UHGV virus genome: UHGV-0267677
Reading direction: 5' to 3' (one strand)
From: a virus
DNA: 12,895 nucleotides
Part shown: positions 2,280-11,313 of the stretch, one piece after another
Numbering within the stretch: position 1 is the first letter of the stretch
How the letters are laid out: each line of letters starts with the position of its first letter
Notes under the pieces: generated by a model
What the model was told of the DNA's origin: nothing
Seen by the model: the letters and a program-made list of their open reading frames with translations, nothing else
Databases searched by the model: none
Translations under genes and position numbers: made by a program

Positions 2280-2945
2280 ATGAAAATCATACAGTTACAA
2301 ATGGTATTTTTTTACGATTCATCAACGACTGTCGATTTCGATGGAATGTCGTATTTTATTAGGCAAACTTTTAAAAAGAAGGCAGGTATTGAATTAACAA
2401 ACAATATGATGTTGGGCGTTTTACCTATGGATACCCCACCAGAGATTCCTCGTCTCCAATTGTTTTCTATAGATAATAAATTTAGAGTTCAATGCTCACT
2501 GCAGAGATGTGATTTGTTTTTTGAACGTATGGATTCTGAGCAAGAGGTAGACTTACATTTGTTTCAAGAAGTTTTCGATAGTGTGGTTGATATCCATAAA
2601 GAACTCAATAAGGATATTATCAGAATAGGCTTGGTGGCCGTTAAGGCGGAATTAAACAACAACCCAAACAAAGAGATTGTTAAAAACTATCTTAGTAACA
2701 ACATGCAGAATGATAGCGAAATAATTGAAGATATTAATTTAATGTATAATAAAAAATTCGAGTTTGAGCAGTCCATATTTAATTGTCATTTGTCGATTAT
2801 GTCAGGATATGATCTTGTCAGAGAACAACCAATGCTAGTGAAACAGATCGATGTGAATACAATCGAGAGTTTTATATTTAAAGATAAATATACCGCAGAA
2901 AAAACAAAAAAAGCCTTTTTAAGTAAAGTGAATGAAATTCAGTAA
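2280..2945 (+). CDS. Hypothetical protein, cargo gene 1 of the AT-rich island (no recognisable motif; start uncertain)
   Basis: 221-aa ORF in a strongly AT-rich block with a Lys/Asn/Ile-rich composition. ATG 2280 has poor SD spacing (AGGA abuts the ATG), so a downstream in-frame start is possible. Ends TAA 2943-2945, 14 nt before gene 2. No antisense ORF of comparable quality. Confidence 0.55.
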   Translation: MKIIQLQMVFFYDSSTTVDFDGMSYFIRQTFKKKAGIELTNNMMLGVLPMDTPPEIPRLQLFSIDNKFRVQCSLQRCDLFFERMDSEQEVDLHLFQEVFDSVVDIHKELNKDIIRIGLVAVKAELNNNPNKEIVKNYLSNNMQNDSEIIEDINLMYNKKFEFEQSIFNCHLSIMSGYDLVREQPMLVKQIDVNTIESFIFKDKYTAEKTKKAFLSKVNEIQ

Positions 2946-2959
2946 TGTGAGGTGGCTGA

Positions 2960-3919
2960 ATGAATAAGGATGATAATAAAAAGGATATAAAAAGAATTGC
3001 AAATAATAATGCTATAGTCAACGATGACATGGCAAAAAGAACTGCGCATCATTCACTTTATTCTAATTCACAAGTATCGAATAGTACATCTACGTATACA
3101 GGAGGGGTACAAAAAATTAGTAATTTGCAGATAGATAATAAAACTGCAACAGCTTCAAATAAAGAGCGGGAAAGTATATCTATCAAAGACGCGGCACCAC
3201 AAAACTTAATAAAAACCTCTCTTTTTGTTAATGAAAAAGAAATGTTGCATGAAGCTATAAAATACAGTTCAAAAGCAACTGTGCCGGTGATGGATAATAC
3301 TGTCTCTAATGCCATTTTATCTAATTACTTTGTTAATAATAATTCTGAATCTACAATTTCTTTTAATAAAGAGAATGTAAAAAAATATACAAAAAGTGAT
3401 ATTGATAACATCCTCTGGAAAAATATCAATGATCAACTAACCAATTTTTCGCAAGAGTTGAATAAGAGCAAAAAGAATATTAATGATACTAAAAGAAAAA
3501 TAGGTAAGGTAATGTCTTCATTATCTCAGCAAACTGCAAAGATTGAGCAATTTGATGCAACATTATCAAATGCTGAAAAAGATATACATGAGAAAGTTAA
3601 AAGCTTTGAATCGGAAGTAATTACAGCAAGGAACTCAATGCTGGGTGTCATTGCTTTATTTGCTTCTTTCTTTACTTTCATTTCTATTTCAGTAAACGTA
3701 TTTTCTCGCGATATGTCTTTAAGCATGTCAATCTCAGTTTTGTTAGTGATATGGTCGTGCTTAATTAGCTTTATCTTTGTTTTTATGGCAGGGATTAGCA
3801 AGGGAGGAGCTTTTTTTACAAGCTCATCATTTATTAAGCATGCCATTTTTATGGTTGTGCTTTTTATTTCATCTTTCGCACTCCCTAAAGTTATTTTTAA
3901 TATCTTTGCAATTAGCTGA
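2960..3919 (+). CDS. Hypothetical membrane protein, cargo gene 2 (N/S/T-rich N-terminus, coiled-coil-like middle, three C-terminal TM helices)
   Basis: Strong SD GAGGTGG 4 nt upstream of ATG 2960. Hydrophobic segments at about aa 227-247, 255-278 and 293-317. The preceding ~75 aa (KNINDQL...KVKSFESEV) is heptad-like and charged. Confidence 0.7.
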   Translation: MNKDDNKKDIKRIANNNAIVNDDMAKRTAHHSLYSNSQVSNSTSTYTGGVQKISNLQIDNKTATASNKERESISIKDAAPQNLIKTSLFVNEKEMLHEAIKYSSKATVPVMDNTVSNAILSNYFVNNNSESTISFNKENVKKYTKSDIDNILWKNINDQLTNFSQELNKSKKNINDTKRKIGKVMSSLSQQTAKIEQFDATLSNAEKDIHEKVKSFESEVITARNSMLGVIALFASFFTFISISVNVFSRDMSLSMSISVLLVIWSCLISFIFVFMAGISKGGAFFTSSSFIKHAIFMVVLFISSFALPKVIFNIFAIS

Positions 3920-4020
3920 CTATCAGATGTTATCTTCAGTTGTTTAGGGTTGATTTAAAAGCGAATCTTAATATTTTCAAGTTTTGAATTTAGAAATAAA
4001 AAAGCCATAATATTGTCATC

Positions 4021-4148
4021 GGAGCCTAAAAAACTCCGGTGACTTCTGCGCTAAACGGGGACGTTTATGCGCACACACAATCCAAACTCTCATCTCCATT
4101 CACAGATGCAGAAATGCACCTACGATTTTTTACATTCGGTGTTTTACT
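4021..4148 (+). repeat. Direct repeat copy 1 (~125 bp, ~90% identical to copy 2), containing a conserved GGGA-loop hairpin
   Basis: ggagcctaaaaaactccggtgacttctgcgctaaacggggacgtttatgcgcaca...ccattcacagatgcagaaatgcacct.cgatttttt recurs at 5954-6078 with a few substitutions and no indels. Internal imperfect hairpin tgcgctaaacg-GGGA-cgttta(t)gcgca. Confidence 0.85.
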
Positions 4149-4550
4149 TCGACAGCCAGAATTGGGAGTCTCTATTCGTCTGGCGGCTAAAGGTGATATG
4201 GAAATCGTTATGTTTTGGCCTGAGGTAGTTGTAACTGTTGTAGCAACTATGGCTGTGATCATCATGGTGTCCATTTACTGGGGTTGACGACATGATTTAT
4301 CCGGCGCTATATTCTGTGCGTTGCCGCAAAATCGGCACACGGGATTGGCGTCCCGGGATACTACTCAACGCATACCGCGTTAAGCGGTTTTTTTGTGCGC
4401 TAAGCACGGCTATGCCCAAATTATGGTGGGCTGTGTGAGGGCTTCTTCGGAAGCGCCGGGTTTGAGTAGCCGGTTACGCCAACCTTACACAGTTCACCAC
4501 CAGTCGATTGGCGTCGTTGGTGGTGATGGTTAACCTGATGAGGTGATACT

Positions 4551-5159
4551 ATGACTACTCAATTAGCATTCCACAAAACGACGTTTACCCCGATTTGCCA
4601 CAATAACAGAATTTGGCTTACTGCCACTGAAGTTGGTTTAGCACTGGAATATGCGGACGATAAAGCAGTTCAGCGCATTTACTCTCGGCACTCAGATGAA
4701 TTCACAGATATGATGACAAGGGTGGTCAAAGTGACCACCCCTCGTGGAATGCAGGAGTCTCGAGTATTTAGCCTTCGCGGAGCCCATTTGATCGCCATGT
4801 TTGCTCGTACTCCTGTGGCCAAAGAATTCCGCCGCTGGGTTCTGGATATTCTCGATCGAGAAGTTCAACAATCCCCAATCACAAAACAATTCACTGATAA
4901 CGAACTTTGCACACTCGCCTGGTTATGGCGAGCAAGTGATACGATGTTAACCGCCTGCCAGAACGTTACGCCCCTTCTTCAGGTCGCAGAGCATCGCGAA
5001 GCAGGTAGATTCACTTCAATCGAACAAGAATATCCTCGGATACTCAACAGGGCGCGAGAAATCCTTGCCAGAGAAACGGCGCATGTAAAATTCCAACCGT
5101 GGCAGGATGATAAGTGGAGTCGTGTGTTACCATATTTCCGTCAGAATCTGTTGCAATAA
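4551..5159 (+). CDS. Bro-N domain protein (phage antirepressor/KilA-N-like DNA-binding family), C-terminal half unassigned
   Basis: SD GAGGTGA 5 nt upstream of ATG 4551. N-terminal region ...NRIWLTATEVGLALEY...RVFSLRGAHLIAMFARTPVAKEFRRWVLDIL fits the Bro-N signature I recall (...YSLIMRSRKPEAKAFRKWV...). Confidence 0.75.
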   Translation: MTTQLAFHKTTFTPICHNNRIWLTATEVGLALEYADDKAVQRIYSRHSDEFTDMMTRVVKVTTPRGMQESRVFSLRGAHLIAMFARTPVAKEFRRWVLDILDREVQQSPITKQFTDNELCTLAWLWRASDTMLTACQNVTPLLQVAEHREAGRFTSIEQEYPRILNRAREILARETAHVKFQPWQDDKWSRVLPYFRQNLLQ

Positions 5160-5178
5160 AGTCACTAGTTAGAAATAC

Positions 5179-5218
5179 TGCCAGCATTCTGCGATGACGG
5201 AAGTGCTGGCATTTTTTT
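5179..5218 (+). terminator. Rho-independent terminator downstream of the Bro-N gene
   Basis: 8-bp stem tgccagca/tgctggca (5179-5186 and 5204-5211) followed by T7 (5212-5218), 20 nt after the stop codon at 5157-5159. Confidence 0.6.
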
Positions 5219-5393
5219 GGTAATGTGCGAGTCCATTTCATAAAATACGGGTACTGGAACTGGACGATATAATCTAAAAGATACCATTATCAGTAGCATT
5301 AAAATCGCTATGTGCCGATACGGATATAAGTTATATTGATTGTTCACATACCTTATTGGATATTACTGAGGGGTGTTTATATAAGGTGTAACG

Positions 5394-5903
5394 ATGATGT
5401 GGAACTTTGACAGTGCCGACTTAAGTGCAATAGCAGCAGGCATTTCTGCGTTTGGCACATTAGCCGCAGCGGGGTCGGCGCTTGCAAGTTGGTACACGTC
5501 AAAAAAAGCGCTGCAGCTACAAAATAGAGTTTACCTTTATGAGTCTTTAAAGGCTTGCGCTGAGAGAGCCAATTCATCAGCTAAAGATAAGCGCGGATCT
5601 GAATGGAGCGTTAATGATGCAGCGGATATCATCAGGTGCCTAGTACGGGCGATGGAGATCATCAAGCAGGATAGCCAGCAGAAAGAAGGTAATCAGGCAT
5701 TAATGTTGAAACAGTACTTTGTTAATCTGCTAATAATGGAACTGTACGAGGAAGTTCATAACGGTGATGCGGCTGATTCTGTTTTTAAAAGGACGGAACC
5801 TACACAAGTACTTGATAACTTATGGGGCAAATGGCAGGAGGCTATAGCTTTTTTTGATATTTGGAATTACCCAGTTGCGACTGAGGAAGACTTGGCAGAC
5901 TAA
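5394..5903 (+). CDS. Hypothetical protein with one N-terminal transmembrane/signal-anchor helix
   Basis: SD AAGGTG 5 nt upstream of ATG 5394. aa ~10-33 (LSAIAAGISAFGTLAAAGSALASWY) is hydrophobic; the remainder is soluble and acidic. Possible sigma70-like promoter TTGATT-17-GATATT at 5336-5364. Lies between the terminator and repeat copy 2. Confidence 0.6.
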   Translation: MMWNFDSADLSAIAAGISAFGTLAAAGSALASWYTSKKALQLQNRVYLYESLKACAERANSSAKDKRGSEWSVNDAADIIRCLVRAMEIIKQDSQQKEGNQALMLKQYFVNLLIMELYEEVHNGDAADSVFKRTEPTQVLDNLWGKWQEAIAFFDIWNYPVATEEDLAD

Positions 5904-5953
5904 TTTTCAGCACATTTGATTTCCAATAATCAACCAGCCATAATCATGCCATT

Positions 5954-6078
5954 GGAGCCTGAACAACTCCGGTGACTTCTGCGCTAAACGGGGACGTTTA
6001 TGCGCACATACAATCCAACCTATCTTCTCCATTCACAGATGCAGAAATGCACCTGCGATTTTTTGCATCCAGCGTTTG
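5954..6078 (+). repeat. Direct repeat copy 2, immediately upstream of the ybcN/ninB-like gene
   Basis: See copy 1; the same hairpin is preserved. The repeat ends about 20 nt before the GTG start at 6098. Confidence 0.85.
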
Positions 6079-6097
6079 GCCTCTGCGGAGGTGAAGC

Positions 6098-6553
6098 GTG
6101 AACCTCCCACAAGACGGCATAAAATTACATCGCGGTAACTTCACCGCTATCGGTCGGCAGATCCAGCCTTATCTGGAGGAGGGCAAATGCTTTCGCATGG
6201 TGCTTAAACCGTGGCGTGAGAAACGCAGTCTTTCCCAGAATGCACTCAGCCACATGTGGTACAGCGAAATCAGTGAATACCTCATCAGCAGGGGTAAAAC
6301 GTTCGCCACTCCAGCTTGGGTAAAAGATGCTCTCAAACACACATATCTCGGTTATGAAACCAAAGATCTGGTTGATGTCGTAACCGGTGATATCACCACT
6401 ATCCAGTCGTTACGCCATACCTCCGATCTTGATACCGGAGAGATGTATGTCTTCCTGTGTAAGGTCGAAGCCTGGGCGGTGAATATTGGCTGCCATCTGA
6501 CTATTCCGCAGAGCTGCGAGTTCCAGCAGCTCCGTGACAAGCAGGAGGCGTAA
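6098..6553 (+). CDS. ybcN: NinB/Orf-family recombination protein (YbcN-like)
   Basis: 151 aa, GTG start with SD GGAGG 6 nt upstream. The motif [15 protein letters not shown] resembles the lambda Orf/NinB core. Synteny with ninE-ybcO-rusA-ylcG-quuD-nmpC matches the DLP12 gene order. Confidence 0.85.
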
Positions 6554-10954: not shown

Positions 10955-11044
10955 GCAGGATATTCTGCTGAAAAATGCGGGATGGCCACGCGAGCGGATA
11001 ACACGAAATCCTGCTAACTGGTAAAACAGAAGTGAATAAAAGTA

Positions 11045-11081
11045 AAACCCCGATTGCGCGAACAGTCGGGGTTTTGTTTTT
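11045..11081 (+). terminator. Rho-independent terminator ~90 nt downstream of the endolysin
   Basis: Stem aaaccccga/tcggggttt (11045-11053 and 11066-11074) with a 12-nt loop, followed by tgttttt. Confidence 0.6.
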
Positions 11082-11115
11082 GGACTAATTCTGTGGATGC
11101 GCATGGGGATCAGTC

Positions 11116-11313
11116 ATGCCAGTAAAGACTAACACGACGAAAGATAAATTTGGAGATGATCTGATGATAAAAGCAGAAACCACTCCGCAGGGTGCGGATG
11201 ATGCCGCAAAAATCATCGCAGTATGCCGTGGTATCAGGCACATACTGACGCCAGTTGCATGGATTATTTGTACCGCACTGATTGCATACACAACGATTTA
11301 TTTAAACAGATGA
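11116..11313 (+). CDS. Possible small membrane protein (65 aa) in the endolysin-Rz insert; weakly supported
   Basis: ORF with a C-terminal hydrophobic helix ILTPVAWIICTALIAYTTIYL. Followed, with ATGA overlap, by a 28-aa hydrophobic mini-ORF (11310-11396, MSAEFVRATVFAIRIVAIAVLVWAIRWW). No family recognised. Confidence 0.3.
   Translation: MPVKTNTTKDKFGDDLMIKAETTPQGADDAAKIIAVCRGIRHILTPVAWIICTALIAYTTIYLNR

Follow-up and report, generated by a model that had tools for sequence, protein, structure and literature searches.

A repeated leader element with three covarying RNA hairpins ahead of a lambdoid nin-Q operon: a candidate translation-coupled attenuator

We analysed the virus genome UHGV-0267677 over a window of 12,895 nt, which is the whole stretch of DNA available to us. 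A repeat search found a single repeat family in this window, a pair at 3995-4144 and 5928-6077 (hereafter copy 1 and copy 2). The copies are 150 nt long, align without gaps at 88% identity with a spacing of 1933 nt, and share identical runs of 42 and 29 nt. BLAST of copy 1 against copy 2 gave E = 4e-50, so the repeat is not a chance match. An earlier sequence-only reading had placed it at 4021-4148 and 5954-6078, which lies inside the true repeat but misses about 26 nt at the 5' end, namely the -10 hexamer and part of the promoter spacer. As that reading had claimed, homology stops some 20 nt short of the ybcN start (GTG at 6098), and each component that it had named in the block between the copies (leader, Bro-N gene, terminator, promoter, second gene) was located. 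The features are as follows.

3984-4011, plus strand: promoter-like site of copy 1 (-35 TTGAAT, 16-nt spacer, -10 CATAAT at 4006-4011; predicted start near 4018)
4016-4042, plus strand: hairpin H1 of copy 1 (TCATCGGAG / CTCCGGTGA, loop CCTAAAAAA)
4047-4073, plus strand: hairpin H2 of copy 1 (TGCGCTAAACG-GGGA-CGTTTATGCGCA), Shine-Dalgarno in the loop and ATG (4067) in the 3' arm
4067-4228, plus strand: remnant of the leader ORF in copy 1, 53 codons, coupled to no gene, C-terminus diverged
4103-4131, plus strand: hairpin H3 of copy 1 (CAGATGCA-GAAA-TGCACCTA), lacking its outer pair through a G to A change and followed by CGA and T6
4284-4394, plus strand: isrK-type promoter (TTGACG-18-TATATT) and IsrK / c4-a1b1 RNA with terminator (promoter prediction and Rfam)
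4419-4504, plus strand: C4-type antisense RNA (Rfam C4, RF01695, 74.8 bits; gathering threshold 45)
4551-5159, plus strand: antirepressor-like protein with Bro-N (PF02498, E = 4e-10) and P22AR C-terminal (PF10548, E = 2e-17) domains
5179-5218, plus strand: predicted intrinsic terminator of the antirepressor module (TGCCAGCA...TGCTGGCA, then T7)
5217-5903, plus strand: variable cargo slot with a promoter-like site (5217-5246) and a gene for a 169-aa protein (5394-5903)
5916-5944, plus strand: putative promoter of copy 2 (-35 TTGATT, 17-nt spacer, -10 CATAAT; predicted start near 5951)
5949-5975, plus strand: hairpin H1 of copy 2 (CCATTGGAG / CTCCGGTGA, loop CCTGAACAA), with two G-U pairs on the plus strand
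5980-6006, plus strand: hairpin H2 of copy 2, GGGA Shine-Dalgarno in the loop and ATG (6000) in the 3' arm
6000-6101, plus strand: leader ORF of copy 2, 33 codons (homologue of ylcH / orf33), TGA stop overlapping the GTG start of ybcN (GTGA)
6036-6064, plus strand: hairpin H3 of copy 2 (CAGATGCA-GAAA-TGCACCTG) containing an A.C mismatch and followed by CGA and T6
6098-6553, plus strand: ybcN/ninB, first gene of the nin-Q operon

The intervening block had been described as a self-contained cassette. Instead it consists of two modules, and only the gene or genes past the antirepressor terminator vary. The first module begins with the IsrK-type RNA, which matches Rfam isrK (RF01394) at 4322-4394 with 58.7 bits, above the gathering threshold of 50, and c4-a1b1 at 4307-4359 with 39.6 bits, below the threshold of 46.7. 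The C4 RNA follows, overlapped by an orf45-like small ORF (4423-4533), and then the antirepressor-like gene. This series of isrK, C4, a small ORF overlapping C4 and a gene of the antirepressor type is also that of the Gifsy-1 isrK locus and of immI (c4-icd-ant) in P1/P7. In Gifsy-1, where the organisation is isrK-orf45-anrP (PMC4825925), the isrK module lies downstream of antQ and has no leader copy ahead of it, unlike in the window, and the window antirepressor is weakly similar to AnrP, in the N-terminus only (E = 0.003). The junction of copy 1 with isrK is present in 300 E. coli genomes, O157:H7 among them. The terminator at 5179-5218 forms the right end of the conserved block running from copy 1 through isrK to the antirepressor gene, and homology to other double-copy loci stops near 5190. 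In the slot beyond it, the window carries the gene for the 169-aa protein, which has an N-terminal hydrophobic segment; this protein and two upstream genes had no family match in PADLOC, Pfam or NCBIfam. Other genomes have other cargos in the same slot, and the interval from the antirepressor terminator to copy 2 appears to be a cargo hot spot.

The repeated element itself was found in 2750 of 5426 complete E. coli genomes, about half, and the median number of copies was one. The promoter, H1, H2, the leader ORF and H3 with a U-tract are shared by more than 100 homologues, which come from at least eight enterobacterial genera. The same element forms the orf33 leader of phage 82 (X92588) and lies at ylcH-ybcN in the K-12 prophage DLP12, at 87-92% identity to the window copies; against positions 48-244 of X92588, the identity is 87% over 164 nt for copy 1 and 91% over 286 nt for copy 2. 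The putative -35, -10, inverted repeat and RBS annotated in X92588 correspond to the promoter, H1 and the H2 loop described here. Its 33-codon orf33 overlaps orf151/ybcN, as the ORF of copy 2 does, whereas copy 1 is uncoupled. The annotation treats H1 as a possible DNA site for a regulator and orf33 as a protein, and it does not include H2, H3, RNA covariation or the family-wide coupling of stop and start codons. Phage 82 and DLP12 have a single copy, unlike the window, and these two together with thousands of E. coli prophages, all with one copy directly before ybcN, bear out the earlier suggestion that copy 2 is the native nin leader. A cmscan search of the whole window against Rfam 15 (E <= 1) gave no match on either repeat copy, full-text literature searches for ylcH and ybcN returned no description of the element, and a literature search for tR2 and ninB in lambdoid phages returned nothing on it. 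The element is widespread in prophages yet undescribed as a three-hairpin RNA.

A conserved, putative sigma-70 promoter heads the element. The -35 and -10 hexamers are conserved with 16-18 nt spacing, and the one mapped transcription start site is that of the Gifsy-1 relative, linked by position: the same promoter, H1 and H2 lie about 1606 nt upstream of antQ, matching the start site mapped 1,600 nt upstream of this gene (PMC4825925). The -10 is nearly invariant, and some variants have an extended -10 in place of the -35. In the family the -35 overlaps a conserved palindrome, which reads TTGATT-N6-AATCAA in copy 2 and is degenerate in copy 1.

Downstream of the promoter, three helices are conserved as RNA. 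In an alignment of 101 distinct sequences, which was fitted by a covariance model and in which many sequences are close relatives, 98.9% of the cells in H1, H2 and H3 were paired, compared with 25-33% in slid controls, and compensatory changes occurred at 22 of the 26 pairs (8/9 in H1, 10/10 in H2, 4/7 in H3). The covariance-model alignment was used because RNAalifold on a plain MAFFT alignment mis-registered H2. Wobble pairs in the family are G-U on the plus strand. Although H3 folds better on the minus strand, that orientation was rejected, because the natural variants pair on the plus strand only and no minus-strand U-tract follows. The hairpin with the GGGA loop had been recognised in both copies by the sequence-only reading, and it is indeed present at 4047-4073 and 5980-6006 as a conserved RNA structure (H2). 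The structured character of this loop therefore held up, but its GGGA is the Shine-Dalgarno sequence of the leader ORF, and throughout the family the start codon lies in the stem. H1, H3 and the promoter go beyond that description. H1 presents a conserved 9-nt loop, CCUGAACAA, on very different stems. Among 26 fully paired haplotypes of H3, the fourth pair is A.C in 20 and G.U in 3.

The conserved reading frame starts at the ATG within H2 (4067 and 6000). The frame from a GTG in the repeat, to which attention had been drawn, is open in both copies (4039-4287 and 5972-6094) but is not the conserved one: it is open in 17 of 128 homologues, compared with 127 of 128 unique sequences for the ATG frame. 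The leader ORF has 31-34 codons and is always in frame, although its N-terminal part is either 33 or 36 nt long. In about 140 of 150 elements its stop codon overlaps the start of the following gene, and the junctions are of three types. In the window, ybcN/ninB is probably coupled translationally to the leader ORF through the GTGA overlap.

H3 of copy 2, which occupies codons 13-19 of the 33-codon ORF, is a weak predicted intrinsic terminator inside this ORF (prediction at 6040-6057 with ATTTTTT; folding energy -9.3 kcal/mol). Its position is that of tR2 in lambda, between ren and ninB and thus directly before ninB, where a hairpin is likewise followed by a U-tract. tR2 differs in having no sequence similarity to the element, in being a strong stand-alone hairpin (-15.7 kcal/mol compared with -9.3 kcal/mol for H3 of copy 2) and in lacking the promoter, the 5' hairpins and the leader ORF. 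The U-tract after H3 is interrupted (AUUUUCU) in most family members and reads AAUUCUUU in DLP12.

We propose that the two repeats are copies of a conserved regulatory module, about 165 nt long, that serves as leader to the lambdoid nin-Q operon, and give a probability of roughly 0.55 to this explanation as a whole, that is, to the identity of the module together with the attenuator mechanism, the roles of the two copies and their origin. From the layout of these parts, we infer that the leader is a translation-coupled attenuator that insulates Q, with an active promoter and termination at H3. The sigma-70 promoter would give a transcript that opens with H1. Without antitermination, most transcripts reaching the leader, whether from its own promoter in the lysogen or from constitutively expressed accessory genes upstream, would stop at H3, leaving an RNA of about 110 nt and Q silent. 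Read-through and translation of ybcN would require a ribosome on the leader ORF, which would melt H3 and re-initiate at the ATGA or GTGA overlap, and H2 would restrict how often this happens. What counts would be the act of translation, not the YlcH peptide.

Attenuators of the pyrBI and pyrE type have a leader ORF that runs through an intrinsic terminator, so that a closely following ribosome could block the hairpin and no antiterminator is needed. As in pyrBI, the leader ORF here spans the predicted terminator hairpin H3. The element differs from both in having no evident U-rich pause region or nucleotide-sensing logic, in the start codon sequestered in a hairpin and in the coupling of the ORF to the downstream gene. 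No covarying antiterminator alternative was found in the family: the ATGCAG/CTGCAT pairing is broken in several homologues without compensation. Pairing of H3 with the linker UUCUGC or with the downstream CUGCAU was rejected for want of supporting covariation, and so was a leader-peptide attenuator of the trp/his type, in which the sole alternative pairing is the broken one and the N-terminal codons vary freely. Given its weak stem and the interrupted U-tracts, H3 could be a pause or processing hairpin instead of a terminator. In Gifsy-1 there is no separate small ORF, the leader continuing directly into a long one, and since relatives of the Gifsy type have the leader ORF fused in this way and a degenerate U-tract, termination is not universal in the superfamily. 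The attenuator model accounts for neither the conserved H1 loop nor the conserved -35 palindrome.

The two copies appear to differ in their state. Copy 2 (5916-6101) is, to judge from its features, the intact working leader. Copy 1 (3984-4144) looks like a degenerating paralogue joined to the IsrK-C4-orf45-antirepressor module. It has lost the coupling of the ORF, one pair of H3 and the H1 loop motif, since CCTAAAAAA stands in place of CCUGAACAA. H3 of copy 1, at -4.4 kcal/mol, is weaker than that of copy 2 and gave no terminator call. Among copies 1, two (L067 and L141) read CAG ATG TAG, which gives a stop codon and retains a U.G pair in H3, and others have frameshifted tails of 40, 46 or 53 codons; the O157:H7 equivalent of the ORF is a pseudogene in the PGAP annotation. 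All copies 1 share the 3' signature ATTCGGTGT and the T6 tract. As the -10 hexamer, H2 and the hairpin with U6 are retained, copy 1 most likely acts only as an insulator, made up of promoter and terminator, ahead of the antirepressor gene.

Polymorphism of the arrangement, which had been predicted, is evident: a single copy is usual, two copies are found in combination with at least five different cargos, AR_0077 and O157:H7 being examples of the double arrangement, and PhiR5_1 and PhiR26_1 have an intermediate arrangement. The exact empty site expected for the left flank did not turn up; a hybrid query of left flank, one repeat and ybcN was matched in 0 of 5426 genomes at >=80% coverage. The 12% divergence of the copies and their different diagnostic 3' ends argue against a recent duplication in place, and the double arrangement appears to have arisen by module shuffling at the conserved leader. 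Morons and module boundary sequences in lambdoid mosaic genomes were reportedly described by Juhala et al. in 2000, a paper cited in PMC4104026. The locus is moron-like in having accessory genes with their own promoter between conserved sequences and a cargo that differs among otherwise similar prophages. Unlike the boundary sequences of morons, the flank is a structured leader present twice and not a short linker.

A more far-reaching version of the proposal, which we regard as possible but not likely, is that an undescribed cis-regulatory RNA family gates Q and lysis independently of CI and PR. Here a promoter active in the lysogen would feed the three-hairpin leader, a conserved trans factor (protein or RNA) would recognise the conserved, boxB-like H1 loop, termination or pausing would be adjusted by the conserved A.C or G.U wobble in H3, and accessory modules would use leader copies as portable insulators. 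A search of the window for a partner of the H1 loop, by way of its complement TTGTTCAGG, returned 6 matches compared with 3.4 expected, and the sole exact match was the element itself.

The order of promoter, 5' hairpin and terminator is also typical of sRNA genes, and the element could encode a stable RNA, about 110 nt long and perhaps dual-function by also encoding YlcH, that acts in trans on mRNAs of the host or the phage through the single-stranded CA-rich stretch between H2 and H3. In that stretch, CACACACAAUCCAAAC resembles CA-rich motifs like those of GcvB targets (PMC4104026); prophage sRNAs are common at conserved positions, and the neighbouring IsrK is both an sRNA and an mRNA. However, the supposed seed is the most variable part of the element, and the strictly in-frame ORF with its stop/start overlap implies selection on read-through transcripts. 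The element is also absent from the Hfq-bound EcOnc sRNAs of Sakai, in a screen that excluded sites next to CDSs. The CA-rich stretch had suggested the anti-sRNAs AgvB/AsxR, an identity that fails on both locus and sequence: AgvB lies downstream of PR', and the 3' domain of AgvB/AsxR (GTATCTCATGC...GCCCGAAC...) has no match in the window at <=3 mismatches. We therefore consider an sRNA gene unlikely. Other known sRNAs were set aside by location, EcOnc11 of Sakai lying after the lysis genes and STnc2080, STnc1380 and STnc1160 of Gifsy-1 lying elsewhere or being the C4/orf45 RNA.

The conserved H1 loop raises the question whether H1 and H2 form a cis-acting antitermination RNA similar to put or nut, which would alter RNA polymerase or recruit a factor and so allow processive read-through of H3 and the later nin terminators to Q. 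The put RNAs of HK022 likewise have two stem-loops, of about 60-70 nt, directly after the promoter and ahead of terminators, as in putL (PMC9378689). Conservation of the loop over very different stems, and the CCUGAAnAA that it shares with lambda nutR boxB (GCCCUGAAAAAGGGC), point to a specific partner. Against this, there is no detectable homology to the put RNAs: covariance model R1, run with filters off at E <= 1, found nothing in HK022 24000-40751, which covers putL and putR. A nut site has a boxA followed by a boxB hairpin with a 5-bp stem and a GAAnA pentaloop; here the stem of lambda boxB cannot form and no boxA lies upstream. The loop and 3' arm of H2 are constrained as Shine-Dalgarno sequence and start codon, which put RNAs do not have, unlike the element with its ORF, and the same loop occurs in phages of different immunity and N types. 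An antitermination role of this kind is thus doubtful in our estimation.

Could YlcH be a functional small protein and the repeat a duplicated gene, with the hairpins incidental? The ORF is intact in nearly all homologues, has a conserved core of 14 residues and carries a CDS annotation in K-12, phage 82 and RefSeq. Yet variable sites are distributed over the three codon positions as 20/20/19 and 14/20/14, with no third-position excess, and conservation of the core is seen in its nucleotides and falls on H3, where a loop variant changes QKC to LNG and keeps the hairpin. The N-terminus varies freely, the C-terminus is set by the RBS of the next gene in its three types, and YlcH has no NCBIfam match. 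This makes a protein function very improbable. The least credible reading, a feature of the DNA only (a conserved boundary for homologous recombination among mosaic phage modules, or a palindromic repressor operator as in the 1996 annotation, without RNA function), draws on homology that ends exactly at module boundaries with different downstream genes and cargos attached, on identical runs long enough to support RecA or Red recombination, on the label 'possible regulator-binding site' for H1 in X92588 and on the palindrome over the -35, but it conflicts with compensatory changes in three separate helices, with wobbles that are G-U on the plus strand only and that the opposite strand, or a palindrome in DNA, would show as A.C, and with the constraints on reading frame and stop/start overlap. 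Serving as a substrate for recombination would not conflict with the attenuator explanation but would add to it.

The element is placed between accessory genes expressed in the prophage and the antiterminator Q, which triggers lysis. About half of the sequenced E. coli genomes have it, among them K-12 (as ylcH) and O157:H7, and it occurs in many further enterobacterial genera. The toxic antQ operon of Salmonella Gifsy-1 begins with a partial form (promoter, H1 and H2). Comparative support for the three RNA helices and the leader ORF is strong, yet there is no Rfam family for them. If the model of an attenuator and insulator is true, it would account for the silence of rusA and Q in prophages of the DLP12 type, would make the K-12 orphan gene ylcH a leader ORF, and would define a predictable slot in which toxin, immunity and defence cargo of prophages may be found.

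The window corresponds to the early-right part of a lambdoid prophage, in which the O gene, the P gene and two AT-rich unknown genes are followed by the region under study and then by ybcN/ninB, ninE, ybcO, rusA, ylcG and Q. A repeat search reported a sole long direct repeat (3995-4144 and 5928-6077; 150 nt, 88% identity, without gaps; BLAST of copy 1 against copy 2, E = 4e-50). The repeat described in the sequence-only reading lies inside it and lacks about 26 nt at the 5' end, where the -10 hexamer sits. The features are as follows.

830-946: four tandem iteron-like repeats of 22-23 nt (TTTACCyGAATCAGGTAA) inside the O gene; the expected lambdoid ori
2280-3919: two genes downstream of P and ahead of copy 1, encoding 221 aa and 319 aa
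3984-4144: copy 1 of the leader
4307-4394: isrK / c4-a1b1 RNA (Rfam; isrK above gathering threshold)
4419-4504: C4 antisense RNA (Rfam; above gathering threshold)
4551-5159: Bro-N + P22AR-C antirepressor-type gene
5179-5218: terminator closing the isrK-C4-antirepressor module
5916-6101: copy 2 of the leader, before ybcN
11040-11132, minus strand: Rfam hit to sar, an antisense RNA of P22 immI, below threshold (32.5 bits versus gathering 43, E = 0.0025)

The isrK-C4-antirepressor block is arranged like the Gifsy-1 isrK-orf45-anrP locus and P1 immI. Its terminator is followed by a separate promoter-like site and a gene for a 169-aa protein, which matched no family in Pfam, NCBIfam or PADLOC. The 221-aa and 319-aa proteins, the latter with hydrophobic segments at its C-terminal end, also had no family in these databases; their genes have 28-34% GC versus ~50% in the phage genes on either side and probably form an accessory or defence module gained by horizontal transfer. 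In PhiR26_1, PD-lambda-1 occupies their slot.

Copy 2 had been proposed to be the native leader of ybcN, and phage 82 and K-12 DLP12 indeed have the same leader before ybcN. The phage 82 record (GenBank X92588) annotates a putative -35, a -10, an inverted repeat ('possible regulator-binding site'), an RBS, and orf33 overlapping orf151; in DLP12, the leader preceding ybcN contains a 33-codon ylcH-type CDS. The element is present in 2750 of 5426 complete E. coli genomes, mostly once per genome, and also in phi80, HK639, HK225, and Enterobacter and Klebsiella phages, even with another downstream gene. Homologues were collected in three scans, one of species-representative genomes using the 20-mer core of H3 (the last of the three leader hairpins, H1 to H3) as query, and two of viral contigs using anchors outside H3. 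The former yielded 33 true homologues (Enterobacter, Citrobacter, Lelliottia, Trabulsiella, Huaxiibacter, Scandinavium, Pseudescherichia, and Escherichia), and each of the latter at least 120 loci. With a covariance model of 18 seeds and a hand-drawn structure, 104 matches were aligned, 101 of them distinct. Because this alignment was fitted to the model and contains many related sequences, an alignment-free check was also made.

The -10 of the leader family (CATAAT or TATAAT) is almost invariant. Of 102 unique upstream sequences among the matches listed, 60 have a -35 TTGATT that forms one half of the palindrome TTGATT-N6-AATCAA; some variants have an extended -10 in place of the -35. The palindrome lies at window 5916-5933, and its right half, within the promoter spacer, is 80-90% conserved across the family, which is unusual for a plain promoter. 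It may be an operator for some factor. Gifsy-1 has the same promoter, H1, and H2 at its top covariance-model match (19 bits, E ~0.01), with a predicted start ~1606 nt 5' of the antQ ATG. According to the IsrK paper (PMC4825925), the mapped antQ transcription start site lies 1,600 nt 5' of the gene; this is, through sequence homology, the only experimental anchor for the leader promoter.

Standard pairs occupy 98.9% of cells in the 101 distinct sequences among the matches listed, compared with 25-33% in controls with partners shifted by 1-3 columns. Compensatory changes occur at 22 of the 26 pairs (H1 8/9, H2 10/10, H3 4/7), and none of 500 shuffles attained the observed values. The GGGA-loop hairpin, H2, is thus a conserved RNA structure, as had been suggested: all of its pairs show compensation, and the alignment-free check found at least seven stem haplotypes with a loop that is invariably GGGA or GGGGA. 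H1 stems are highly varied (TCACCGGAG/CTCCGGTGA, CTGCCAG/CTGGCAG, GTCGCAGTCGG/CCGGTTGCGAC, ATAGG/CCTAT), and most copies have the loop CCUGAACAA, whose UGAAC core is constant. H3 has 26 fully paired haplotypes among the matches listed, with inner stems such as UGCA/UGCA, CGUU/AACG, CCUC/GGGG, UUCC/GGAA, and CCCU/AGGG and an outer stem alternating between CAG/CUG and CUG/CAG. Its fourth pair (window 6039/6052 and 4106/4119) is A.C in 20 of the 26 haplotypes and G.U in three, which suggests a conserved pair of wobble geometry, possibly protonated A+.C, rather than a defect.

Two further occurrences of leader sequence were noted. The conserved H3 core TGTCACAGATGCAGAAATGCACCTGCGATTT is a CRISPR spacer between type I-E-like repeats CGGTTTATCCCCGCTGGCGCGGGGAACAC in Enterobacter sp. 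BIGb0383 (NZ_RJKQ01000002.1; L023:5480-5560); therefore, a host targets the conserved leader. In AR_0077, antisense to the PL operon and outside the window (L003:3213-3260), the H1-loop core and the conserved leader linker GACTTCTGCGC occur together in CTGCTGAACATATAGAGACTTCTGCGCG, at an unrelated site, which could be chance or a relic.

The start codon of the leader ORF (ATG or GTG) lies within the 3' arm of H2, 5 nt after the GGGGA loop. Of the 128 unique sequences among the matches listed, 127 keep this frame open and 106 the +1 frame, the latter within the two large haplotype groups only; the GTG frame earlier considered as a possible leader peptide is open in just 17 and is not the one conserved. 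The ORF has 31-34 codons in ~145 elements, its variable N-terminal part being always 33 or 36 nt, and its stop overlaps the start of the next gene (ATGA or GTGA) in ~140 of 150, again among the matches listed. This overlap spans three C-terminus/RBS types and many different downstream genes. In Lelliottia wanjuensis (L008:837-1006), the leader ORF continues in frame into a 171-codon ORF, without a coupled start.

All family features are present in copy 2. In copy 1, the H1 loop motif is gone (CCTAAAAAA), the outer H3 pair is abolished by a G to A substitution (folding just -4.4 kcal/mol), the -35 palindrome is degenerate, and the ORF runs for 53 codons with no coupled gene. The same decay is seen in copy 1 of other double-arrangement genomes: L067 and L141 have CAG ATG TAG, with a stop codon that retains a U.G pair in H3; the ORF tails of L074 and L149 are frameshifted; and O157:H7 has a degraded H1 stem and an ORF called as a pseudogene by PGAP. 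All copy 1s have a diagnostic 3' end, ATTCGGTGT, and a T6 tract in common and are contiguous with the isrK-C4-antirepressor block (window 4003-5190); this junction was found at coverage of at least 80% in 300 of 5426 E. coli genomes.

The norm is a single leader immediately before ybcN, and the double state recurs with varied cargo between the antirepressor terminator and copy 2, in agreement with the cassette polymorphism proposed earlier. The slot is occupied by the 169-aa protein in the window, by a HEPN protein with its partner in O157:H7, L067, and L141, by three small genes in L068, and by one reverse-strand gene in L149. In O157:H7 (Z885; L166:5880-6676), the HEPN-domain protein and its overlapping 133-aa partner are a candidate toxin-antitoxin or defence pair; the sole PADLOC match for this cargo was weak (PDC-M28A). 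A different 4.1-kb cassette lies between two leader copies in IMGVR_UViG_2609459941_000002 (L122:6847-11081), encoding a tail-fibre-like 380-aa protein, a 620-aa S-type pyocin (cloacin/colicin E3-type cytotoxic domain), and a cloacin immunity protein, with neither C4 nor isrK RNA. In L068, copy 2 and copy 1 have different H2 haplotypes; in PhiR26_1, copy 1 ends prematurely at window position 4047; and in PhiR5_1, homology is limited to 4773-6200, without copy 1. The sequence-only reading suggested that cassette insertion may have duplicated the repeat; a hybrid query representing precise excision, its empty site, matched none of 5426 E. coli genomes. The 12% divergence and distinct 3' signatures of the copies argue against recent local duplication, and we therefore favour a double arrangement in which parts of different phages would have recombined at or beside the conserved leader. 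Identical runs of 42 nt and 29 nt would still allow cassette loss by recombination.

From the anatomy, conservation, + strand RNA pairing, translated frame, and coupling that the comparisons establish, we infer an attenuator. H3 would halt most transcripts arriving without antitermination, so that Q would be driven neither by the upstream AT-rich accessory genes (28-34% GC) nor by the leader's own promoter. A ribosome translating the leader ORF would counteract H3 before passing to ybcN at the overlap, and H2 would restrict initiation on this ORF. Copy 1 would keep only promoter and terminator (insulator) activity, ahead of the antirepressor. In lambda, the tR2 hairpin and U-tract lie within the 74 nt between ren and ninB, a position equivalent to that of H3 and its U-tract, although H3 is weaker (-9.3 versus -15.7 kcal/mol). 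The weak points of the attenuator are that H3 is weak and the U-tract interrupted in most relatives, that no antiterminator alternative is supported, that the conserved H1 loop and -35 palindrome are not accounted for, and that the leader ORF of Gifsy-type relatives is fused to a long ORF.

Some probability goes to a trans-acting sRNA and some to a put-like or nut-like antitermination site. The H1 loop CCUGAACAA (window 5958-5966) has CCUGAAnAA in common with lambda boxB GCCCUGAAAAAGGGC (nutR, L289:68-82), a stretch including the GAAnA pentaloop motif, closable by a U-A pair; however, H1 has no lambda-type boxB stem, there is no boxA, and homology to HK022 put was tested and not found. The leader ORF might also encode a functional peptide. 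It matched no NCBIfam family, its variable sites fall at codon positions 20/20/19 and 14/20/14, without third-position excess, and a natural H3-loop variant changes QKC to LNG with the hairpin retained; from the latter two observations, we conclude that selection acts on translation of the frame rather than on the peptide. Lastly, a DNA-only feature keeps some probability, although single-base hairpin variants still pair via G-U on the + strand, where the other strand would give A.C, which places the helices in + strand RNA rather than in a minus-strand transcript or DNA operator.

A GenBank record of 1996 already outlined the parts of the element, and K-12 has ylcH as an annotated gene. No Rfam family matches the leader, and no description of it was found in the literature searched; it is best filed as a new family within the established kind of promoter-proximal structured leaders with a leader ORF and internal terminator. 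A divergent subfamily of ~100 loci among the matches listed (e.g., L014:5305-5427 and L162:6024-6142) has an extended -10, H1 ATAGG/CCTAT, H2 GCGCCA/TGGCGC, and H3 CUGACGUU/AACGCCAG. It is located deeper in nin regions, sometimes ~1 kb downstream of a canonical copy, and is followed by other genes, among them ORFs whose N-terminus is LexA-like (RQQEVFDLL). The leader belongs to a broad superfamily, in which the H1 loop is the best-conserved feature and hints at a partner.
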